Of a DNA stretch of 64,000 nucleotides, positions 6,953-57,606 are shown piece by piece. The first letter of the stretch is position 1; each line of letters opens with the position of its first letter. Source of the stretch: an uncultured Gammaproteobacteria bacterium (GTDB lineage: Bacteria; Patescibacteriota; Microgenomatia; Levybacterales; UBA12049); the NCBI GenBank assembly GCA_964512695.1, contig CAZEJU010000005.1, forward strand, positions 5,668 to 69,667, given 5' to 3'. A program made the position numbers and the translations under genes. Below the pieces are notes generated by a model. It ran no database searches. It saw only the letters and a list, made by a program, of their open reading frames with translations, and was not told the origin of the DNA.

Positions 6953-8347
6953 ATGTATAATACGAAAAAGATGACGAAGAAAATCGTAGGTACATTTATT
7001 CCACTTTCAGCACTTCCCAAAAATGGCACTATAGAAGACGGTATACAATTTCTTGATTGGCTTGAGAAGATGAAACAAAATGCATGGCAAGTATTACCAC
7101 TACATGAAACTCACTTAGAAAAAGGTTCAAAAACTAAACATGTTCCTTCTCCCTATAAAAGTTATGGAATTGGATTAGATCCTAAATATGGATATAAAAC
7201 TAAATCCCAAATACTTGAGATAAATGATGAATTTATACATTTTGAGAAGGATAATGCATTCTGGTTGTCAGACTATGCATTATTTTGTTCTTTAAGAGAT
7301 TATTTCGGTACTGATTTATGGACACAGTGGGATAAAAGTGCAAAATTCCGAGAACCCAACGCACTGTATAAATGGGAGAAGAAACTTATAACGCAGATAC
7401 AATCTTATAAAGTAACTCAATGGCAGCTACATAAAGAATTTAGTGTTTTACGAACACAAGCGGAAAAGAAAAATATTGCTCTGATCGGTGATTTACCGTT
7501 CTACTTACCATTACAAAGCCCACTTGTATGGGCAAACCAAAATTTATTTGATATTAATCCAGATGGTTCTCTATCAGTAATCTCAGGCGTTGTAAGACGA
7601 GCAGATAGTCCCTATGGACGTCAAATTTGGGGACATCCACTTTATAACTGGCAGGATCTGATCATAACACAGGCTATAACAAAGTTATTTATAAAAAGAA
7701 TAAAATATCTCGCAGGATTATTTGATGTTATTCGTCTAGATGCTATTAATTATCTTTTCAGATATTGTCGTATAAATATTGCAAATGAACACAAAGATAC
7801 CGTACTAAATGGTCCTGGAGAAACTATATTAAAAATAATATTACAAACAGCTAAAGAAAGTAATCTCTCTGTTTTTGCAGAGGATGCCGGAGCAGAACTT
7901 ACGAAGTTACAAAAAGCTCTAAAGGATACAGATATCCCCGGAATAAAAATTTTTCGCTATGCATACAACAATGTACTAGACGCATTTATTGACACATATA
8001 CCAATATTACTGAATATCCGGAAAATAGTTTCGCATATACCACAACACACGATACTGAACCTTTAGTTGTTTGGTTAGCTACCATACCGCACGAGAGGAA
8101 AGTTGAACTTGCAAAGAGAATAGGTGTTCCTTATGAGAAAGAAGACTCTAGACTAGCCAAGCATATACGTAAAGCAATCATACAATCTCCTTCAAAAATA
8201 ACAATCATTCCAATGCAGGATTGGTTGTTAACAAAAGAACGAATTAACATACCTGGAACAGAAAAAGAAGTTAACGATCCAAATTGGCGTTATAAATTAG
8301 CGACACCTATTAGTGAGTTACCAATAATTAATGTTTCTGAAGAGTAG
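6953..8347 (+). CDS. malQ: 4-alpha-glucanotransferase (amylomaltase, GH77)
   Basis: N-terminal GH77 pattern (GTFIPLSALP...FLDWLEKMKQNAWQVLPLHET...PYKSYGIGLDP), IGDLPFYL, catalytic-region RLDAINY, and AEDAGAE. Confidence 0.8.
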   Translation: MYNTKKMTKKIVGTFIPLSALPKNGTIEDGIQFLDWLEKMKQNAWQVLPLHETHLEKGSKTKHVPSPYKSYGIGLDPKYGYKTKSQILEINDEFIHFEKDNAFWLSDYALFCSLRDYFGTDLWTQWDKSAKFREPNALYKWEKKLITQIQSYKVTQWQLHKEFSVLRTQAEKKNIALIGDLPFYLPLQSPLVWANQNLFDINPDGSLSVISGVVRRADSPYGRQIWGHPLYNWQDLIITQAITKLFIKRIKYLAGLFDVIRLDAINYLFRYCRINIANEHKDTVLNGPGETILKIILQTAKESNLSVFAEDAGAELTKLQKALKDTDIPGIKIFRYAYNNVLDAFIDTYTNITEYPENSFAYTTTHDTEPLVVWLATIPHERKVELAKRIGVPYEKEDSRLAKHIRKAIIQSPSKITIIPMQDWLLTKERINIPGTEKEVNDPNWRYKLATPISELPIINVSEE

Positions 8348-22846: not shown

Positions 22847-22930
22847 AGCTGACTATTATACTAAATATAGGTCTAAATATACAGTGCTTTTATATCCTAT
22901 AAGAAAATGGTATAATCATAGGAAATTACT

Positions 22931-33407: not shown

Positions 33408-33716
33408 TTAAGTACCAATCACGGTATTAATCTTTGTAATTACATCATTGATTGATAGGTCTGATTTTATTATATAATCACGCGCTCCTAATTTCATTCC
33501 ACGATCAATATCTTCTTTTTGCCCTAAATTTGAAGCAATAATAACAGGAATCCTTTTCCAGTCCGGATTATTTTGAATTTCTTCTAAAACCGTAAACCCG
33601 TCTTTTTTAGGCATCATAAGATCCAGTAACATAACATCTGGGACAAATGTTTTGAGCGTATCAATTGCCTCCTGGCCGTCTGCTACTAATGTAACATCAA
33701 ACCCTTCCTTTGCCAT
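33408..33716 (-). CDS. CheY-like receiver domain protein lacking a canonical AUG-initiated N-terminus (see findings)
   Basis: Receiver motifs are present (VMLLDLMMPKKDG; conserved K in ASNLG). In-frame codons upstream of the ATG encode PIIKNITAEDDKFLANAYRVK, i.e. the missing beta1-DD segment, with no ATG/GTG/TTG before the upstream stop. Confidence 0.6.
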   Translation of the reverse strand: MAKEGFDVTLVADGQEAIDTLKTFVPDVMLLDLMMPKKDGFTVLEEIQNNPDWKRIPVIIASNLGQKEDIDRGMKLGARDYIIKSDLSINDVITKINTVIGT

Positions 33717-33927
33717 TTTTACGCGATATGCATTAGCGAGGAATTTATCATCTTCAGCTGTTATATTTTTTATAATTGGCTAAAAGCTTTATCGGATGAT
33801 GCAATTTTTACTTCCTAAACCTGATGTACTTCTTATGGAAAATATAGACATCGGTTTTCTATCAGCTTTTTTCGCATTTCCATAAATTTATTCTTTCAAG
33901 TTTTACAGTCCTAACACTCTTAAAGTG

Positions 33928-34308
33928 TTATAAGTAGCTTTTAACCTCTTCTGCTATTGCTGACAAACTTGCATCTGATTTGACCAGAAAATCTATGGCT
34001 CCCATTTCTTTCGCCATTTTTTTATCTTCTTCTTGCGATAAATTCGAAGTGATAATTACTTTTGTGTTTATCCCTTTTTCACGAATAACTGATAGTACCT
34101 CCCAACCATCAATACCAGGCATCATGATATCTAAAAGGACTAAGGAATAAGTCCCTGATTGCAATTCCTTTAATCCTTCCTCACCGCTGAAGACCACGTG
34201 AGCAGTAATGCCCCCTTTTTGAAGCTTTATCTCCATCGCTTTTCCCATTGCTTTTTCGTCCTCAATAATAAGAACTTTTTTTGTATTGTTACTATTTACA
34301 CTTTCCAA
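33928..34308 (-). CDS. Single-domain response regulator (CheY-like receiver)
   Basis: KKVLIIEDEKAMGKA..., LVLLDIMMPGIDGWEV, conserved K (SNLSQ..K). 126 aa. Confidence 0.8.
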   Translation of the reverse strand: MESVNSNNTKKVLIIEDEKAMGKAMEIKLQKGGITAHVVFSGEEGLKELQSGTYSLVLLDIMMPGIDGWEVLSVIREKGINTKVIITSNLSQEEDKKMAKEMGAIDFLVKSDASLSAIAEEVKSYL

Positions 34309-34359
34309 ACTGTAATATTCACCCTCTTTCTTTTTATATTTTCTCTTCTGTTTGAGAAT

Positions 34360-34782
34360 TTAATAGAGCTGCACTTCTTTATCTTGCAAATCAAAAATCC
34401 CATTTAATTTTTCAACTATTTCTTCTAGGGAATTTTCTGATTTAACAAGATAATAAGACGGCTGGTCGGTTACTACATGAGTTAACCTTTCGTCATTTGT
34501 ATCAAAATTCGTAAGAATAACCACTGAAGCATATTTACCCCATTTATTCTCACGTAACTTATGTAACATAGTCAGACCATCCATTTTGGGCATTTCAATA
34601 TCCAGTAAAATTGCGTTCGGATGATTTTTTAATGCAGCATCCAGCCCAGTTGCTCCGTCCCCAGCTTCTAAAACTAAAAACCCTAAGCTTTCTAGTTTCA
34701 CGGCAATTGCTTGCCTAAGAGAGGCATCATCTTCAATGATAAGAATGGACTTACTCGTTTCCAAATTATTTTGATTTGCCAT
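34360..34782 (-). CDS. Single-domain response regulator (CheY-like receiver)
   Basis: KSILIIEDDASLRQA..., ILLDIEMPKMDGLTML. 140 aa. Confidence 0.8.
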   Translation of the reverse strand: MANQNNLETSKSILIIEDDASLRQAIAVKLESLGFLVLEAGDGATGLDAALKNHPNAILLDIEMPKMDGLTMLHKLRENKWGKYASVVILTNFDTNDERLTHVVTDQPSYYLVKSENSLEEIVEKLNGIFDLQDKEVQLY

Positions 34783-35170
34783 ATAAGCATTCTTTTAGAG
34801 CCTCAACTATTTGATCTAAGCGAAAATTCGCCTTAACAAAGTACTTATTCACCCCCAGCTGCATATACATTCTCACTTTTTCTTCGCTTGCCGTATTACT
34901 TACAACAAAAATTGGAATATGTTTCCATTTTGAATCAGAACTTTTGATTTTTGTAACCAAATCTAATCCGTCATCTTTACCTAACAAATAGTGGTCTAAC
35001 CAAATTCCATCCACCTGACTAAGTTCTTCCAAATAAGACATGGCTTGTTGTACACTTCTTGCGGTAGCCACATTAATATTGTTATTCTCAAGCTTTATCT
35101 TAATCACTTCTAACAATGGAATTTCATCCTCAATAACTAAAATCGTTTTTGTCTCCATAAAGATAGTCAC
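34766..35170 (-). CDS. Single-domain response regulator (CheY-like receiver)
   Basis: KTILVIEDEIPLLEV..., IWLDHYLLGKDDGLDLV. 134 aa, overlapping the next receiver gene by 17 nt. Confidence 0.75.
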   Translation of the reverse strand: MTIFMETKTILVIEDEIPLLEVIKIKLENNNINVATARSVQQAMSYLEELSQVDGIWLDHYLLGKDDGLDLVTKIKSSDSKWKHIPIFVVSNTASEEKVRMYMQLGVNKYFVKANFRLDQIVEALKECLYGKSK

Positions 35171-35179
35171 CTCCTTCCT

Positions 35180-37381
35180 TCATTTTAATCTTCTATTACC
35201 GTCTTTCTTCACCATTCCAGAAAGAGGCAATAACACAAAAAACGTTGTACCTTTATTTTCTTCCGAATAAAACCATATTTTACCTCGGCAATGATCTATC
35301 AATGATTTTACAAGATACAATCCTAACCCAGTTCCATCAGTATTTTGTACTCTGACATTATCTGCCCTAAAAAGTTTTTCGAAAACTTTTCCTTGTTGCA
35401 TGGTGGTTATTCCGATACCATTATCCTCAACTTCTATAAGAAGACTATTCTCTTCTGCTTTTACCCCACCAACTGCTTCTTCCTGCTGGATAGTTTTTAA
35501 AGAGATTTTTATTTCTCCGTTTTCATTGGTGTATTTGATTGAATTTGTAAGCAAGTTCTGGAGTATGATTGTAGTTAAGTTAGGATCAAGCATGATTTGG
35601 GGCATATCATCTTTCTCGAGGACTACTCTTAATTTTTTCTCATCTATCATAGGCTTTGACTCATCCAGGATAGAACGGGTTAATCTCACAATATCAACCA
35701 TTTCAGGTTCAATCATGTAATTGCCTGTTTCAATTCTCGACACATTCAGTAGTGCATTTACCAGCTTTGACAGGCGCTGACTTCCTTGATAGGCTTCCTG
35801 GATAAACTTTTTTTGCTCATCTGTTACATTACCTGCATCTCCAGATAAAAGAAGTTCACAATACCAATTGATAGTTGAGAGAGGCGTACGCAGCTGATGA
35901 GATGCTAAAGAGATAAATTCTGACTTAGCCCTGTCTATTTGCTTTTCTCTCGTAACATCATGCAGAACAGTAACCGTGCCCAATAGTTTATTCCTCAGTA
36001 GAATGGGAGTAATCGTAACTAATACCGCAATCTTTTCTCCATTTTTTTTGGTATAGATCACTGCACTGCTGATCTTCTCTTTACGGGATAGCACTTTATT
36101 TATAATTCTTTCCGCAGGAGGTATGACTCTTCCATTTTCATCTTCCGCCTTAATAGCTTCAATTAATTTTCTCTCTACCAGATCCTGTGGGGTATATCCT
36201 AATAACTCTTCTATTGCTTGATTTATCCTCACAATTTGTCCCTTCTCATCTGTGACGATCAGTCCGTCCCCAATACTTGATATAAGAACTTCATCATATA
36301 TGCGTTCTTCCTCAAGATGGGTTATATCCTCTTCTGTCCCTATAAAGCCAATTATCCTATCTTCCTTTTTTATGGGTGAAATATGGGTAATCACGGTGTA
36401 ATATTCACCATTTTTTCGTCTATTCTGTAGCTCCCCATCAAATCCTTCACCTGCTCGTATTGTTTGCCATAGTTTTTGGTACAAGTCTTGAGTCATAATA
36501 CCACCCCATAAGCGAGGCGTATTATTTTTCATCTCCTCAAAACTAAAACCTGTCATTTGCTGAGCTTTTTTATTTGCAAAAACAACAAACCCGTTTACAT
36601 CAGTTATCACAACGTGATTGCGGGAGTCTTGAATTGCTTGCAACATAATATTCTTCTCTGTTTGTTCATTATTAAAATCAGATTCTGTTAAAATAGTATC
36701 ATTTATTCTTGGATAGTGTTCCTCAAAACGCATGTTCTGAAAAGGAGTATTTCTGCGGGCTAGAAGCACATATGTCTCATCAATAAACCCCTGCGGACCA
36801 CAAATAAAGAAAAGATCCTCCGCAAAATTGATTCCTGATGGAAAAAGTTCATTTGATATTTTTCCAATATGGTTTACAAATACGATATTTTGCTGTGCAG
36901 TTATCCTGGAAAGCTCTTCTGAGAAAGCGCTTTTTTCAGAAGCTGAGTTAACATACATAAGTGTTAAATTTGGATTCATCTCTTCCTGGAGAGAGTTAAT
37001 AATTGAAAGAAATGGTGCAATCCCGACTCCGCCTGCGATCATAACTATATTTTGTTTTTGATTTTTAAGTGAATAGGAACTCCCAAATGGACCGAGTATT
37101 TTTACCCTACTTTGAAGTGGAAGTTCTAAAAGCGTTTTTATATATCCTGAATCTGAATTGCGAAAAAGAATAGAGCAGGATTTTTTATTCAAAGAACTGG
37201 AGATAATAGAGAAAGCTCTTCTCCCTCCTTTTAGATCCGGGTATAAAAGCTCGGACACAATTACCCAGACATATTGACCGGGAGAAAAACTAAAATCTTG
37301 TTCAAAGAAGAAGGTAATGACTGTCGTGTCTTTTGCAACTGTTTTCTTTTCCTGAATTGTCGCCCACATTTCATTACTCAT
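35180..37381 (-). CDS. Hybrid sensor histidine kinase: N-terminal ferredoxin-NADP-reductase-like FAD/NAD(P)-binding oxidoreductase module, then 2 PAS domains, HisKA and HATPase_c
   Basis: FNR-family motifs RRAFSIISS (RxYS FAD site), MIAGGVGIAPFLSII (GGxGxxP NAD site) and FFICGPQGF. Two PAS-like segments. H-box ASHQLRTPLSTI, N-box LLTNSIKYT, G1 VEDNGIGI, G2 GTGLGLYLVKSL. Confidence 0.8.
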   Translation of the reverse strand: MSNEMWATIQEKKTVAKDTTVITFFFEQDFSFSPGQYVWVIVSELLYPDLKGGRRAFSIISSSLNKKSCSILFRNSDSGYIKTLLELPLQSRVKILGPFGSSYSLKNQKQNIVMIAGGVGIAPFLSIINSLQEEMNPNLTLMYVNSASEKSAFSEELSRITAQQNIVFVNHIGKISNELFPSGINFAEDLFFICGPQGFIDETYVLLARRNTPFQNMRFEEHYPRINDTILTESDFNNEQTEKNIMLQAIQDSRNHVVITDVNGFVVFANKKAQQMTGFSFEEMKNNTPRLWGGIMTQDLYQKLWQTIRAGEGFDGELQNRRKNGEYYTVITHISPIKKEDRIIGFIGTEEDITHLEEERIYDEVLISSIGDGLIVTDEKGQIVRINQAIEELLGYTPQDLVERKLIEAIKAEDENGRVIPPAERIINKVLSRKEKISSAVIYTKKNGEKIAVLVTITPILLRNKLLGTVTVLHDVTREKQIDRAKSEFISLASHQLRTPLSTINWYCELLLSGDAGNVTDEQKKFIQEAYQGSQRLSKLVNALLNVSRIETGNYMIEPEMVDIVRLTRSILDESKPMIDEKKLRVVLEKDDMPQIMLDPNLTTIILQNLLTNSIKYTNENGEIKISLKTIQQEEAVGGVKAEENSLLIEVEDNGIGITTMQQGKVFEKLFRADNVRVQNTDGTGLGLYLVKSLIDHCRGKIWFYSEENKGTTFFVLLPLSGMVKKDGNRRLK

Positions 37382-38145: not shown

Positions 38146-40896
38146 TCAACCCAGATCACTATTGAGATGACATTTTTTATATTTCTTCCCTGACCCACAC
38201 CAGCAGGGATCATTCCTGCCTGGTTTTTTAGGTTTAGAGCTAGATACGTTTGCAGCATTACCTCCTGCAGTACCTGAATGTGCGAGATTAGTTCTATTTT
38301 GCGTACCTGGTTTTTTCTGAGAATCTCCACTAACTTCACTCACGGGAGTATTCGTATGTATGTGCTGATGAAACTCCGGCGAAACCTGGACTTGTACTTT
38401 AAATATTCTGTGAACAATCTCGTCATCGACAGAGAACATTAATTGCTCAAACATACGAAAAGCTTCATTTTTATATTCTACCAATGGATCTTTCTGAGCA
38501 TAACCGCGTAATCCTATTCCTTGCCTCAAATCATCAATTGCATCGAGATGATCCATCCATAAACGATCAATTGATGCTAAAAATACATATCTTTCAATCT
38601 GTTTTGTTGTTTCTTTCCCTACTTGTTTCTCTTTCTTATCGTAAAGATCTTTTGCTAAATTTTGTAAAAATTCAATCTTCTCTTCTGGCATATGTACTTG
38701 CTGTAACTGTTTCATAAGTTGTTTTTGCGAAGATTCATCAAATGGTATAATGCTTTGAAAACTACTTACTATTCCTTCGTTTCCTGAGTCCACACTATCA
38801 GCTGACTCTGATGAGGCAAGAGAAATATGCACAATTGTTTCAATAGCTTTATCCACTCTCTGTAATATTTCTTTTTTCGCAAACTCGTCATCTGAATCAG
38901 TTTTTAATAAAATATCTCGTCGTAATGCATAAATAACTTCACGTTGTTTATTTAATACATCATCATATTCCACCAAATGCTTTCTAATATCGAAATTAAA
39001 TCCTTCTACTTTAACTTGTGCATGCTCTATGGAGCGTGAAACAAGTGGATGCTCGAGAGGAACATCCTCAGGCATATTAAATCTCGTCATTAATCCTGAA
39101 ATTCTATCTCCTCCGAAAAGCCGCATTATATCGTCATCTAATGATACATAAAAACGCGATTTTCCCGGGTCTCCCTGTCTTCCAGATCGTCCACGAAGTT
39201 GGTTATCAATACGTCGAGATTCATGTCGCTCCGTACCAATAACATATAATCCGCCTAACTCTAAGACTTCTTTATGCCCCTTTTCCCACTGTTTCCACTC
39301 TGTCGTTCCAAGCATGGGACGACCATCAGTATGTTTGGGACTCTCTCCACCAAGAATAATATCAACTCCCCGACCTGCCATGTTTGTTGCTACAGTCACT
39401 GCGCCTTTTTTCCCAGCTTGGGCAATAATTTGTGCTTCCCGAGCATGGTTTTTAGCGTTAAGTACTTCATGCTTTATACCTCTACGGCGCAATAGCTGTG
39501 ATAAGATTTCATTTTTTTCTATAGACGTTGTACCCACGAGAACTGGTTGACCTTCAGCATGCGCTTTTTCAATGTCATCAACAACAGCAGTTAATTTCGC
39601 ACGGGTGGTTTTATAGACAGCATCTGACTGATCCAAACGAGCCAAAGGATTATTTGTAGGAATAACAACAACGTCCAATTTATAGATCTTCTGGAATTCT
39701 TCAGCTTCTGTCACTGCTGTACCAGTCATACCAGCAAGTTTTTCATACATACGGAAATAATTCTGCAGTGATACTGTAGCAAGAGTTTTAGACTCTCTCT
39801 GAATAGGGACATTTTCTTTTGCTTCAATTGCTTGATGAATACCTTCTGATAATCTTCGTCCTTCCATAAGTCGTCCAGTAAATTCATCCACAAGGATAAC
39901 TTGATTATCACGTACAATGTATTCTTTCTCTTTATGAAACAATGTCCGGGCTTTTAAGGCTGCTTCTAAATGATAAACTGTATCAAAATCTTTTTCATAG
40001 ATATCCGCTATTCCGTACATTTTTTCAATTTTTGCGATACCATGATCTGTTAAATGCGCAGTTCGAAGTTTTTCATCAATTTTATAGTCGATTTCTGGAG
40101 TCAAACGCTGTACTACTTTTGCATATTCATAATATTTTTCGGATGGTGCTTCATCTGGAGCAGAAATAATATGCGGTGTTCTCGCTTCATCTATTAATAC
40201 CGAATCCACTTCATCAACAACTGCATAATAGTAATCTCGCTGAACTATATCTTTACTATCTTGTGCCATATTATCGCGGAGATAGTCAAAACCAAATTCA
40301 GAATTAATGCCATACGTTATATCTGTTTGATATGCTTCTTTGCGTGTGATAGGCCGGAGATGTGATAATCGATAGTCAATAGCGTTTTCATCCGTGTACT
40401 CTGGATCAAAAAGAAAAGAAGCATCATTTATAATTGAGGACACAGATATACCCAGAAGGTGAAATACTTGTCCCATCCAGCCCGCATCACGACGGGCAAG
40501 ATAATCGTTTACAGTCACTAGATGGACATTCTTACCTGTAAGACTATGAAGGTATAATGCAAAAATCGCTGTGAGTGTTTTTCCTTCTCCTGTTTTCTGT
40601 TCTGCAATCTTTCCACGTGATAAGGCAATTGCAGCCATTAGCTGTACATCATATGCGTGTATACTTAGTTTCCTTTTTGTGGCTTCACGTACGAGTGCAA
40701 AAGCCTCTGGTAGTAAACTATCAAGGGATTCCCCAGAAGTAAACCGTTCTTTAAATTCCGCAGTTTTTTTGGGAAAATCTTTCTCCTTAAGAGATGAAAG
40801 TGTATCTTCTAACGCATTAATTTGGTCAACAATAGAGCGAAGTCTTTTTACTTCTTTTTCATTCGAGTCAAATAGACTACTCAGGAATCGTACCAT
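38146..40896 (-). CDS. secA: Preprotein translocase ATPase SecA
   Basis: DEAD-like motor motifs, 916 aa, and a C-terminal zinc-binding tail CWCGSGKKYKKCH. Confidence 0.95.
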   Translation of the reverse strand: MVRFLSSLFDSNEKEVKRLRSIVDQINALEDTLSSLKEKDFPKKTAEFKERFTSGESLDSLLPEAFALVREATKRKLSIHAYDVQLMAAIALSRGKIAEQKTGEGKTLTAIFALYLHSLTGKNVHLVTVNDYLARRDAGWMGQVFHLLGISVSSIINDASFLFDPEYTDENAIDYRLSHLRPITRKEAYQTDITYGINSEFGFDYLRDNMAQDSKDIVQRDYYYAVVDEVDSVLIDEARTPHIISAPDEAPSEKYYEYAKVVQRLTPEIDYKIDEKLRTAHLTDHGIAKIEKMYGIADIYEKDFDTVYHLEAALKARTLFHKEKEYIVRDNQVILVDEFTGRLMEGRRLSEGIHQAIEAKENVPIQRESKTLATVSLQNYFRMYEKLAGMTGTAVTEAEEFQKIYKLDVVVIPTNNPLARLDQSDAVYKTTRAKLTAVVDDIEKAHAEGQPVLVGTTSIEKNEILSQLLRRRGIKHEVLNAKNHAREAQIIAQAGKKGAVTVATNMAGRGVDIILGGESPKHTDGRPMLGTTEWKQWEKGHKEVLELGGLYVIGTERHESRRIDNQLRGRSGRQGDPGKSRFYVSLDDDIMRLFGGDRISGLMTRFNMPEDVPLEHPLVSRSIEHAQVKVEGFNFDIRKHLVEYDDVLNKQREVIYALRRDILLKTDSDDEFAKKEILQRVDKAIETIVHISLASSESADSVDSGNEGIVSSFQSIIPFDESSQKQLMKQLQQVHMPEEKIEFLQNLAKDLYDKKEKQVGKETTKQIERYVFLASIDRLWMDHLDAIDDLRQGIGLRGYAQKDPLVEYKNEAFRMFEQLMFSVDDEIVHRIFKVQVQVSPEFHQHIHTNTPVSEVSGDSQKKPGTQNRTNLAHSGTAGGNAANVSSSKPKKPGRNDPCWCGSGKKYKKCHLNSDLG

Positions 40897-41039
40897 AGCA
40901 CTTCATTTTAACATAGTGTAGGCTCAAATAAAAGTTAACCAAGTTTATTCGTATAAACTCATATCGAAATCATATATTAGAAAAAACAGTAAATGGTTAA
41001 TCGCTGGGAATCATATTTCCTAAAAAAATCCCCTACCGA

Positions 41040-41075
41040 AAAGGGCAGGGGATTTACCAATCGATCAATTGGTAT
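41040..41075 (-). terminator. Rho-independent terminator (minus strand): 8-bp GC-rich stem (AAAUCCCC/GGGGAUUU) with an internal loop, followed by a U7 run
   Basis: Minus-strand RNA reads 5'-AAAUCCCCUGCCCUUUUCGGUAGGGGAUUUUUUUA-3'. It sits about 25 nt downstream of the micro-ORF stop. Confidence 0.55.
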
Positions 41076-41098
41076 TGATCAAAAAACGTAAAGAAAAG

Positions 41099-41158
41099 TT
41101 ACTTTCTTTTCTTTGTTGCTTTTTTCTTTACGACTTTCTTTGTTTTCTTTGCTGCCAT
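41099..41158 (-). CDS. 19-aa Lys-rich micro-ORF (MAAKKTKKVVKKKATKKRK) with a strong SD (GAAGGGGGG 8 nt upstream); speculative
   Basis: Hand translation. It is preceded by a GC-rich hairpin-forming leader and followed by a palindrome and the terminator above. It is below the ORF-track size threshold. Confidence 0.2.
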   Translation of the reverse strand: MAAKKTKKVVKKKATKKRK

Positions 41159-41512
41159 GGTATAATCACCCCCCTTCGCCCTCCATTATTTTAGCGATGG
41201 AGGGTTTCCGCACCTTTGTTATTTATTAATCCGTTTCCTAATGTAGTATCAGGCTTCGGCGGGGCAGGCCCCCTTCCCGTATATCTTTCCCAAACTGAAA
41301 GAGCAGGTTATATTTATAGTTCACTATTTCGAGGCTGTTTGTCAAGAAAAAACGCAGCTTCAAAACTGATCATTTAGGTTGATAAACCAATAAAAATTAA
41401 TGAAGCTAAATATTTTTTTTTAAAAAATAAAACGAAGCTAAATGAGAGGAATTTTAAATTTACAATATTAAAAAATTGATTATAAATTTCAAATTATAAA
41501 GTAAAAATTATC

Positions 41513-42775
41513 TCAGTATGACTTTATAACATCTTTACCTATATATTTTCTTAAGACCTCAGGAACAACTACTGTTCCGTCTTCTTGCTGATAGTTTTCC
41601 ACTATAGCAATAAGTGTCCTACCTATAGCGAAAGCTGTTCCATTGAGAACATACGCAAACTCTGTACTATTTCCATCACGATAACGAATTTTCAATCTTC
41701 TCGACTGGAAATCTGTCACTGTCGATACCGATGTTACTTCGCGGTATTTATTCTGAGCTGGCATCCATGCTTCTATATCATACTTACGAGCTGCTGGAAA
41801 TCCAAGATCCCCTGTACACATTTTTACCACTTGATAAGGAATATCTAATGATTGAAAAAATCTCTCTTCAAGCGACAAAAGATATTCATGCTCTTCATCA
41901 TCTTTACCTTTTTCTACATACGAAACCATCTCCACTTTATGAAATTGATGAACTCTTAGAATTCCTCTCGTATCTTTTCCATAAGAACCAGCTTCCCGGC
42001 GAAATGCGCTTCCAAAACCAACATATCTTTTTGGTAAATCTTTCTTATCCAAAATTTCTTCACGATGCATGGGAACTAATGCATGCTCTGCCGTACCCAC
42101 AAGTACAAGATCATCAGATGGAATCATAAACATATCTTCATCTCCTCCATTTTCCATATAACCAAGTCCTTGCATTGTTTCTTTTTTAATGAGATCTGGA
42201 GTCATTACGGGTGTGAATCCTTCCTTAGTTAAGGTTTCCATAGCGAACTGTACAAGCGCCAACTCCAGTAAAACAGCATCTCCTTTAAGATACGCAAATC
42301 GCGCACCAGAAACCTTAGATGCCCGCTCAATATCTATAATTCCCAATTTTTCACCCAATTCTAGATGGTCTTTTGGAGTAAATGAAAACTTTGTTGGCTC
42401 TTTGTAAGTACGAATAACTTCATTTTCTTTATCATCTTTTCCTATTTTTACATCAGATTTTGCCGGGTTTGGTATGGATATAAGTAATGGATGAAGTTCT
42501 TCATGTGAAGTTTTCAATAGTTCTTCTTTCTCATCAAGTTTTTGTTTTAAAACCTTTCCCTCTTGAATTATTTTTTGTCTTTCACCATTTGCTGCCTGCG
42601 AAACTTCTTTTGCGAATTTATTTCTTTCTTCACGCAGTTTTTGGACTTCTAAAAGGAGTGTCTTATGTGTCTCAACCTTTTCGAGAATAGCATCAATATC
42701 CACGCTGATTCCTTTATGCGAAGCAGCATCTTTAATCTTTTGTGGGCTCTCGAGGATAACATTTATATCTAACAT
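41513..42775 (-). CDS. serS: Seryl-tRNA synthetase
   Basis: N-terminal coiled-coil arm and class II core motifs (e.g. FRREAGS, GTAFAIGRTLIAIVENYQ). 420 aa. Confidence 0.9.
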   Translation of the reverse strand: MLDINVILESPQKIKDAASHKGISVDIDAILEKVETHKTLLLEVQKLREERNKFAKEVSQAANGERQKIIQEGKVLKQKLDEKEELLKTSHEELHPLLISIPNPAKSDVKIGKDDKENEVIRTYKEPTKFSFTPKDHLELGEKLGIIDIERASKVSGARFAYLKGDAVLLELALVQFAMETLTKEGFTPVMTPDLIKKETMQGLGYMENGGDEDMFMIPSDDLVLVGTAEHALVPMHREEILDKKDLPKRYVGFGSAFRREAGSYGKDTRGILRVHQFHKVEMVSYVEKGKDDEEHEYLLSLEERFFQSLDIPYQVVKMCTGDLGFPAARKYDIEAWMPAQNKYREVTSVSTVTDFQSRRLKIRYRDGNSTEFAYVLNGTAFAIGRTLIAIVENYQQEDGTVVVPEVLRKYIGKDVIKSY

Positions 42776-42786
42776 ATAAATACCTT

Positions 42787-43113
42787 CTATTTCTTAGAGG
42801 ATGTCTTCTTTTCCGCTTTTTTAACACCTGGCTTTTTCGAAGCTGTTTTTGTAGGAGTTTTTGACTTCACTGTAGGAGTAACATCTACAGACTTTGCTAA
42901 AGAAGCTTTCAGACGTGCAGCTTTATTTTTATGAATAATATGCTTTTTTGCAGCTTTATCAATACTTGAATAAGCTTCGCTAAGCATTTCCTTTGTGGGA
43001 TTGGCTTTCGCTTTTTTTACCAGCTTTTTAAAAGTCTCTTTTATTTTGAGATTATCTGCTGTTCGTTTTTTATCTTGTCGTAACTTTTTCTTTGCGTGTT
43101 TTAGTACTGGCAT
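42787..43113 (-). CDS. rpsT: 30S ribosomal protein S20 with a Lys/Ala/Thr-rich C-terminal extension
   Basis: MPVLKHAKKKLRQ...IIHKNKAARLKASLAK matches the S20 signature (IHKNKAAR.KA.L). There is an extra tail TPTVKSKTPTKTASKKPGVKKAEKKTSSKK of about 30 aa. Confidence 0.8.
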   Translation of the reverse strand: MPVLKHAKKKLRQDKKRTADNLKIKETFKKLVKKAKANPTKEMLSEAYSSIDKAAKKHIIHKNKAARLKASLAKSVDVTPTVKSKTPTKTASKKPGVKKAEKKTSSKK

Positions 43114-57353: not shown

Positions 57354-57606
57354 AAAAAGAAGTTATATATCAATTAAAGGTGATATGAGAAGTATTGTCA
57401 AATAAATTTTGCTACACATGAGTCGCATTACTACTAATTATCGTACAGTTGATTTATAATTTAATGAATGAACAATACAGTACATATTATATCCTCTTTA
57501 GCTAAAGAAGTCGGACAATTGTTACTGCTGAAAGTAAAGCAAATGTATACCACATAATTAATTAGTATAACAAAGTTGAGGCTATAGATGTGGTATAATC
57601 ATCATT

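Follow-up and report, generated by a model that had tools for sequence, protein, structure and literature searches.

The window analysed here is the whole 64,000-nucleotide stretch of contig CAZEJU010000005.1. On its minus strand, a gap of 616 nt separates the serS stop codon at 41513 from the secA ATG at 40896, and this gap is occupied by a single minus-strand transcription unit that runs from its own promoter to its own terminator. The unit is a real, conserved and previously unannotated small-protein gene with a structured leader. On balance, we favour the view that the gap holds one independent gene of about 290 nt for a disordered, polycationic, nucleic-acid-binding peptide. In the direction of transcription, upstream motifs are followed by a TTGACA promoter, a 5' hairpin, a GC-rich leader, an extended Shine-Dalgarno (SD) sequence, an open reading frame (ORF) of 19 codons, a 3' hairpin and a terminator. 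The GC content is 0.43-0.48 over 41150-41350, compared with 0.13-0.31 in the flanks and 0.36 in the 64-kb window. The first-pass annotation had described this as the longest non-coding gap of the window; this is borne out, as the larger gaps between ORFs of at least 150 amino acids (aa), three in number, are each occupied by smaller genes (response regulators, GroES). Six-frame translation of the serS-secA gap revealed no other coding remnant, and a decayed longer gene was rejected on these grounds. The features of the unit and its boundary are as follows:

41373-41386, minus strand: upstream motif TTTATCAACCTAAA, recognized in the alignments; a candidate activator or UP-type site
41346-41361, minus strand: GAAGCTG and, immediately ahead of the -35 box, a T-tract; the AAGC columns and the T-run are conserved in the nine-lineage alignment
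41340-41345, minus strand: -35 box TTGACA, exact consensus; invariant in nine of nine aligned lineages and also present in L132 and L133
41316-41321, minus strand: -10 box AACTAT, 18 nt after the -35 box; its A..AT columns are invariant and keep a constant spacing to TTGACA
41276-41309, minus strand: 5'-terminal stem-loop AACCUGCUCUUUCAGUUUGGGAAAGAUAUACGGG, from a conserved pattern and predicted folds
41261-41273, minus strand: hairpin P2, GGGGGCCUGCCCC (GGGGG/CCCC); invariant in the window, L082 and L130, and formed in each independent fold
41231-41259, minus strand: hairpin P3, CCG-AAG-CCUGAU-ACUAC-AUUAGG-AAA-CGG, from the predicted fold
41179-41204, minus strand: putative switch region, in which CCCUCCAUCGC (41204-41194) pairs either with the decoy AUGGAGGG (41186-41179) or, masking the SD, with GCGAAGGGGGG
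41165-41177, minus strand: extended SD GAAGGGGGGUGAU, 6 nt before the AUG, from the energy of its duplex with the anti-SD
41099-41158, minus strand: micro-ORF MAAKKTKKVVKKKATKKRK and stop codon, 19 aa, net charge about +11; from homologous ORFs and from frame, codon and A-run tests
41055-41074, minus strand: hairpin of the 3' untranslated region, UACCAAU-UGAUCG-AUUGGUA; kept in L082, L128, L129 and L130
41022-41054, minus strand: intrinsic terminator with a 10-bp GC-rich stem, AAAUCCCCUGCC, a 6-nt loop, GGUAGGGGAUUU and U7
40905-40913, minus strand: secA promoter, extended -10 box TGTTAAAAT, 8 nt before the secA ATG; boundary of the unit

Several of these features had already been proposed in the first pass. 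The GC-rich segment able to form hairpins is found as described (CCCTCCAT-N10-ATGGAGGG at 41204..41179 and GGGGGCCTGCCCC at 41273..41261), and the same holds for the SD (GAAGGGGGGTGAT at 41177..41165, 6 nt ahead of the ATG) and for the micro-ORF, in which ATG to TAA (41158..41099) encodes MAAKKTKKVVKKKATKKRK. A palindrome and a terminator exist as well, but both had been placed about 20 nt off: the palindrome, TACCAATTGATCGATTGGTA, lies at 41074..41055 and not at 41075..41094, and the terminator, AAATCCCCTGCC / GGTAGGGGATTT followed by T7, at 41054..41022 and not at 41040..41075.

Close relatives were reached via SerS homologs with 70-83% identity and the contigs that carry them. Of 11 related Patescibacteria lineages, the window included, 10 carry the unit in the serS-secA gap; besides the window, these are L082/83, L084, L085, L089, L128, L129, L130/131, L132 and L133. 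Independent assemblies agree with one another (L082 = L083, L130 = L131, L086 = L087 = L088), and the gene order in all these relatives is groES-groEL ... murJ / rpsT - serS - gap - secA. Named SerS homologs belong to Patescibacteria or Roizmanbacteria, and the best SecA relatives among the species representatives of GTDB are metagenome-assembled genomes of the Patescibacteria (candidate phyla radiation, CPR) type, with at most 65% identity. Relatives retain the ORF as well as the hairpins. Furthermore, start codon, extended SD, frame, codon choice, promoter and terminator are kept across 10 lineages, which supports the earlier suggestion of a small basic protein gene. The predicted peptides are:

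Window: MAAKKTKKVVKKKATKKRK, 19 aa
L082/83: MAKKTVKRKVAKRKTKSRK, 19 aa
L130/131: MPKKRKKAKKKK, 12 aa
L132: MAAKKKAAKKKKK, 13 aa
L129: MAAKAKKRTTKKTATKRTTKKRK, 23 aa
L084: MPVAKKKTVKKVAAKKTTKKKTKK, 24 aa
L128: MAAKAAKKKVVKKTATKKTAKKKK, 24 aa
L089: MAKKVAKKAAPKKAVKKTTTKKKAKK, 26 aa
L133: MPVKKAAKKAVKKTVKKTVKKTVKKAAAKKKKK, 33 aa
L085: MPVKKKKTAAKKAAPKKKTVKKAAAKKTVKKTTKRKTTAKKKK, 43 aa

Based on these homologs, we regard it as very likely that the micro-ORF is a translated gene. In each of the 10 ORFs, the initiating ATG precedes an Ala or Pro codon, and in the alignment of the lineages the SD together with the ATG forms the most invariant block of the whole locus. Eight homologs contribute 182 in-frame codons, which specify 93 Lys, 33 Ala, 27 Thr, 14 Val, 9 Arg, 5 Pro and 1 Ser; stops and acidic residues are absent. 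The other two frames are interrupted by stops in six and in three of the eight homologs, respectively, and one of them would yield 33% Asp/Glu. Across the family, the peptides consist solely of these seven residues, and Lys and Arg account for half or more of the peptide. The choice of Lys codons is striking: the ORFs use 76 AAG and 42 AAA, compared with 695 AAG and 2330 AAA in the flanking genes of the same loci (Fisher p = 9e-21). Likewise, the longest A-runs sum up to 52 nt, compared with 93 nt expected from local codon usage, and none of 2000 simulations gave a value as low. The AAG bias and the short A-runs thus point to codon-level selection against slippery A-tracts. A scan of all 1.47 Mb of fetched DNA with a signature of the family (SD of -10 kcal/mol or lower, and an ORF of 10-60 codons free of Asp and Glu in which Lys plus Arg make up at least 45%) returned only this family and two unrelated Arg-rich ORFs.

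A type I toxin, sense or antisense, was rejected, as the sense peptide is fully polar and basic and no conserved hydrophobic ORF with start signals of its own is present. A hydrophobic ORF on the antisense strand is rich in Phe, Leu and Cys only as a mirror of the Lys codons; it has no conserved start and is interrupted in several lineages.

The micro-ORF carries what is, by calculated energies, the strongest translation signal in its neighbourhood. The duplex of its SD with the canonical anti-SD amounts to -18.6 kcal/mol in the window and to between -16.3 and -21.6 kcal/mol across all 10 lineages; for comparison, the median of the window genes is -2.5 kcal/mol, and the medians of the neighbours per locus range from -1.4 to -4.1 kcal/mol. 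Even with the best alternative start taken for each gene, one of 48 window genes reaches -12 kcal/mol. The other window gene with a strong SD is a response regulator starting at 35158 (AAGGAGGTGA, -17.4 kcal/mol), which indicates that the anti-SD is in use, and L129 also has a gene with an SD at -15.5 kcal/mol. At least 12 of 47 window genes, secA and rpsT included, show a TAnAAT box, often TRTGnTAnAAT, at 6-12 nt before the start codon, and are hence classified as leaderless. Sites of this type lie at 40905-40913 (secA), upstream of 43113 (rpsT), at 57590-57606 and at 22915-22930. Judged from these signals, the genome appears to be SD-poor and largely leaderless, with an SD lacking altogether in most genes and with the micro-ORF as a rare leadered, SD-driven gene. 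As to the response regulator at 35158, its SD region (35158-35180, minus strand) overlaps the stop codon of an upstream ORF of 733 aa, and the gene is the first of four tandem single-domain response-regulator genes in a cluster at 33408-35170 on the minus strand.

A small basic protein with an exceptional SD in an SD-poor genome is also known from rpsU (bS21) of Flavobacteriia and other Bacteroidota, where the SD lies below -13 kcal/mol, compared with -16 to -22 kcal/mol in the micro-ORF family (PMC9976891, PMC13000453). The micro-ORF could accordingly encode a lineage-specific ribosome-associated micro-protein, autoregulated via its extended SD in the way of bS21, a reading to which we give little credence. 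The logic would be that ribosomes without the peptide expose their anti-SD and preferentially translate the micro-ORF mRNA, and this, too, we hold to be doubtful. It is decidedly unlikely that a clade-specific micro-protein is bound to the ribosome at or near the 3' tail of the 16S rRNA and that SD and masking leader form a feedback which senses peptide-free ribosomes. CPR lineages often lack bS21 (PMC9297842). Very small polybasic ribosomal proteins are known from other bacteria: bS22 and bL37 of Actinobacteria, Bacteroidota and Borrelia have 24-33 residues, mostly Lys and Arg, bind rRNA and long remained unannotated. Further examples are bTHX of Thermus and eL41. These small ribosomal proteins, however, have a fixed length and a conserved sequence, whereas the micro-ORF family varies between 12 and 43 aa with drifting sequence, and only its composition is kept. 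In comparison with bS21, the peptide is unrelated in sequence (no match in Pfam or NCBIfam) and far shorter. Five family peptides, compared at E <= 10 with Pfam and NCBIfam, matched none of the models of known small ribosomal proteins (bS21, bS22, bL37, bL36 etc.). Moreover, the micro-ORF is not the sole gene with a strong SD: the genes at -17.4 kcal/mol in the window and at -15.5 kcal/mol in L129 argue that the anti-SD is not generally occluded. If the reading were true, it would describe a CPR counterpart of the bS21 autoregulation of Bacteroidia, invented independently with a polylysine peptide of 12-43 residues, and the peptide might compensate for ribosomal proteins or rRNA segments lost in CPR.

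Upstream of the transcript, the alignments show a conserved promoter of what is, by its elements, the sigma-70 type (TTGACA, 18 nt, AACTAT). A generic promoter scan had missed the -10 box, for AACTAT matches the consensus at only three of six positions; its positions A2 and T6 are retained in all lineages. From the -10 spacing and from the onset of conservation about 7 nt after the -10 box, we infer a transcription start near 41309. In relatives, the counterpart of the window's upstream motif is the 5-4-5 inverted repeat TTTAGCAATCTAAA, some 30 nt ahead of the -35 box, and CAATCTAAA or a close variant thereof is retained in most of the nine aligned lineages.

The transcript is strongly structured: a stretch of 301 nt folds with z = -5.2 relative to shuffled sequences. 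Its 5'-terminal stem-loop, which is 91% identical to those of L082 and L086, follows the pattern AACCTGYT..CTTTY.GTTTGGRA. This pattern occurs once in the window, where none is expected by chance, and in the fetched loci it is restricted to the homologous position of L082-84 and L086-89. The leaders further downstream are mosaic between lineages. A GC-rich insert is common to the window, L082 and L130; seven lineages have no such insert. Here the structure was taken from independent folds, because a MAFFT alignment of the three sequences is out of register in P3 and P4. At the place equivalent to P3, L082 and L130 also have a hairpin despite a different sequence, which is suggestive, though these are predicted folds of three sequences only. 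In the switch region, a masking helix of 10-11 bp between CCCUCC(W)UCGC and GCGAAGGGGGG is predicted for the window, L082 and L130, and in L130 it is a perfect 11 bp. The consensus of RNAalifold likewise pairs CCCUCC with the G-run of the SD in all three sequences. As an alternative to this masking, the window can form the decoy hairpin CCCUCCAU:AUGGAGGG. Forcing the SD open is predicted to cost 9.7 kcal/mol in the window, 5.2 kcal/mol in L082 and 10.2 kcal/mol in L130. According to these energy models and the three sequences they cover, the GC-rich leader looks like a translational switch. It resembles RNA thermometers and riboswitch expression platforms in that its C-rich element has two possible partners, a decoy G-run and the SD; in the present models, masking is favoured by 5-10 kcal/mol. 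Unlike such SD-masking leaders, the element belongs to no Rfam family and is optional.

In L084, L089, L128, L132 and L133, the leaders measure 49-60 nt, and in most of them a 5' CCUG(C/U) pairs with (G/A)CAGG just upstream of the SD. The leader of the 43-aa homolog (L085, 6240-6330) is unrelated to the others; it is structured as well and contains a 20-nt direct repeat, CTTTCAAATCAAGAGATTTG, twice, the second copy forming a perfect 10-bp hairpin that abuts the SD.

As to the product of the unit, an unrecognised sRNA (small RNA) was among the first-pass suggestions, and the RNA might indeed function by itself, as an sRNA or a dual-function RNA, with the Lys ORF being secondary or a by-product of a purine-rich tract. 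We consider this unlikely, although one lineage lends it some substance: in L086-L088, the ORF is cut to ATGTGA, yet promoter, terminator and 5' hairpin (91% identity with the window) persist. Conservation beyond the needs of pairing is also seen in the loop sequence of this hairpin and in the 5' terminator arm, and the transcript has the strong fold given above. However, L086 is equally explicable as a recent pseudogene, the most invariant block of the locus is SD plus ATG, and the frame, the residue set, the AAG bias and the avoidance of A-runs are all signals at the level of codons. In addition, no target complementarity was identified, and Rfam, with its riboswitch, r-protein leader, sRNA, SRP, 6S, RNase P and tmRNA families, gave no match at gathering threshold, neither in the whole 64-kb window nor in the 10 homologous loci. 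At E <= 10, the window yields only sub-threshold matches driven by terminators, e.g. Spot_42 with 24.5 bits as against a threshold of 80. ARAGORN predicts no tRNA or tmRNA gene in the window. The ORF-less unit itself spans 9376-9520 in L086 (= L087, L088); promoter, 5' hairpin and terminator are intact, ATGTGA and a small hairpin replace the ORF, and the SD is degraded to GAGAGGTATGTGAT.

At the 3' end, the hairpin (41074-41055) and the terminator (41054-41022) abut without overlap, and hence there is no antiterminator alternative. The hairpin of L130 shows an A-U to U-A swap. L084 and L089 keep the CAAUUG/CAAUUG base stem around apical inserts of 21-40 nt, which would fit an RNA stem better than a DNA operator; L085 and L133 have no such hairpin. 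The 5' arm of the terminator, AAATCCCCTGCC, is conserved in seven lineages, while the 3' arm varies in wobble-compatible ways. A TGnTAnAAT box precedes secA right after the terminator in L082, L084, L089, L129 and L130, and about 110 nt further on in the window. This conserved box lies 6-9 nt before the start codon, and the mRNA of secA is therefore probably leaderless or nearly so. Terminator and separate, conserved secA promoter together make the unit independent of secA.

This anatomy bears on a possible role in cis. The suggestion of a leader peptide or riboregulator had been right in that a structured leader exists, but the leader precedes, and probably controls, the micro-ORF itself and not secA. 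A leader peptide that controls secA by attenuation, SecM-like arrest or sensing of lysyl-tRNA would account for the position of the ORF, which is always immediately upstream of secA, and a class of arrest peptides encoded ahead of protein-localisation genes is known (PMC12992588). We nevertheless hold it to be very improbable, and the anatomy of the locus largely refutes it: ORF and secA are separated by a strong terminator with a 10-bp stem and U7, secA has its own TGnTAnAAT promoter and hence no leader to regulate, no antiterminator can form, and the peptide varies in length between 12 and 43 aa, without a hydrophobic or signal segment and without a conserved C-terminal arrest motif. Two specific candidates were rejected accordingly. 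With peptides of the SecM or RAPP type, the family has in common a small ORF directly upstream of a sec gene, but no member contains a large hydrophobic residue beyond Val, and the terminator (41054-41022) and the secA promoter (40913-40905) intervene. An amino-acid attenuation leader of the trp/his type would require an overlapping antiterminator, which is missing, and the downstream gene, secA, is transcribed separately.

The unit has a narrow distribution. The nearest GTDB relative, L002, lacks it and has a serS-secA gap of only about 60 nt, and in 80 GTDB secA loci neither nucleotide similarity to the element (nhmmer, blastn) nor a Lys-rich micro-ORF was detected. The absence in L002 might suggest a chance ORF without function in a decaying or mobile intergenic insert, and so might the mosaic leaders, with a GC-rich insert in three lineages only and an unrelated leader in L085. 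It is hardly credible that such an insert would keep its position and signals in 10 lineages that share no more than 70-83% identity in SerS, or show such strong codon-level selection. Moreover, there are no repeats, paralogous copies or regulon of the unit in the window, and no copies elsewhere among the fetched loci.

None of the unit's parts belongs to a described family. PDB chains gave no match. For five family peptides at E <= 10, there were no matches among NCBIfam families, and the only Pfam match was HC2 (PF07382), which the 43-aa member alone reached with 12.1 bits (E = 0.21); this falls short of the cut-off of 40 bits and reflects likeness in composition. In a phmmer search of the same member against 5.8 billion proteins, nothing scored at E <= 10, as the signal is lost to composition bias, and an exact look-up of two family members did not find them in the protein collection.

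In our interpretation, the product is an independent gene's disordered polycation. That the peptides use so few kinds of residue, show KKxx periodicity and vary freely in length (12-43 aa) among close relatives speaks for a disordered polycation under selection for charge rather than for a fixed fold, and against a pocket-bound ribosomal protein like bS22, bL37 or eL41. Owing to its 5' stem-loop and very strong 30S binding, the message would be stable and heavily translated. In the window, L082 and L130, the GC-rich leader (P2, P3, CCCUCC) would tune translation, in that it masks the SD or frees it via the decoy. The resulting abundant polycation would bind nucleic acid non-specifically and could neutralise and compact rRNA, ribosomes or the nucleoid. 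More specifically, we tentatively propose from its composition and variable length that the peptide acts as a nucleic-acid-binding, free-standing tail, i.e. as a free-standing version of the Ala/Lys-rich tails on CPR ribosomal proteins and some HU proteins, a proposal that may well need revision.

Tails of this kind are documented. In CPR, uS19 and bS20 bear Ala/Lys-rich extensions (PMC9297842), and Lys-rich tails of HU act in DNA binding or compaction (PMC11229371; 10.64898/2026.08.18.745388). The micro-ORF peptides share their residue set with histone-H1-like tails, namely those of HU of Mycobacterium, Streptomyces HupS and Deinococcus, of Chlamydia Hc2 and of CPR uS19 and bS20, as well as the repeat style KKAA, KKTV and PKK. 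In contrast to these tails, the micro-ORF stands alone as a gene with its own promoter, leader and terminator. The S20 protein encoded nearby (42787-43113, minus strand) has a C-terminal extension rich in Lys, Thr, Ser and Pro, …KSKTPTKTASKKPGVKKAEKKTSSKK; the Lys-rich tail pointed out in the first pass is thus real, but its likeness to the peptide is compositional only. Among relatives, the length of S20 ranges from 102 to 140 aa.

With regard to the leader, the cryIIIA STAB-SD, aprE and hbs leaders of Gram-positive bacteria stabilise their mRNAs by means of a 5' stem-loop and a strong SD. The 5'-terminal hairpin and the very strong 30S site are common to these leaders and the micro-ORF unit, whose message is likewise expected to be abundant, and the analogy is one of architecture only.

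Several observations weigh against the interpretation as a gene for a nucleic-acid-binding polycation. Length and sequence are too variable for a fixed binding pocket, which argues against a classical ribosomal protein. The predicted masking of the SD by 5-10 kcal/mol seems at odds with a highly translated message, unless a ribosome or a signal opens the leader, and the structure of this leader is modelled from three sequences and their folding energies. As T is scarce in the purine-rich tract, its composition would account in part for an open frame. The loss of the ORF in L086-L088, one lineage with three independent assemblies, indicates that the gene is dispensable or redundant. The family is narrow, being absent in L002 and not found near secA in the 80 more distant genomes, and it is confined to one Patescibacteria clade as far as can be seen with homology tools, which are blind to low-complexity peptides. 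Finally, the transcription start, the stability of the mRNA and its translation are all read from the sequence.

Genes as short and of as low complexity as this one evade gene callers, homology searches and trypsin-based proteomics, and this one is shared by a clade of bacteria that are uncultured and ultra-small. Should its abundance match what the signals suggest, the peptide would be an uncounted polycation of the CPR cell, with a bearing on the neutralisation and packing of rRNA and DNA in very small volumes and on the completion of reduced ribosomes. An SD-poor genome that keeps a functional anti-SD for a handful of genes would also provide a test case for the purpose of the anti-SD outside Bacteroidia. 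The signature used above (strong SD, 10-60 codons, at least 45% Lys plus Arg, no acidic residue) is applicable to all Patescibacteria genomes.

During the analysis, a few similarities outside the family were noticed. The pattern of the 5' hairpin has 38 matches in metagenomes, all of them chance matches without promoter or ORF, and three viral matches of the same kind; one of the chance metagenome matches lies inside a CRISPR-like array of the 31-nt repeat CAGCCGCCTTCGGGCGGCTGTGTGTTGAAAC (L099, 1300-1700). The 17-mer ATTGGTAAATCCCCTGC at the junction of 3' hairpin and terminator gave 36 matches in a viral scan, nearly all from one family of phage contigs, and was rejected as coincidence inside coding sequence; in about 30 related phage contigs (L137-L172) it falls within the coding sequence …MENALDIIGKSPADLAEIMGM…. 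In L084, an inverted-repeat insert of about 80 nt (7690-7765; CATTCTGG…CCAGAATCGATTCTGG…CCAGAATG) lies between the -10 box of secA and the annotated secA start, and it looks like a miniature mobile element.

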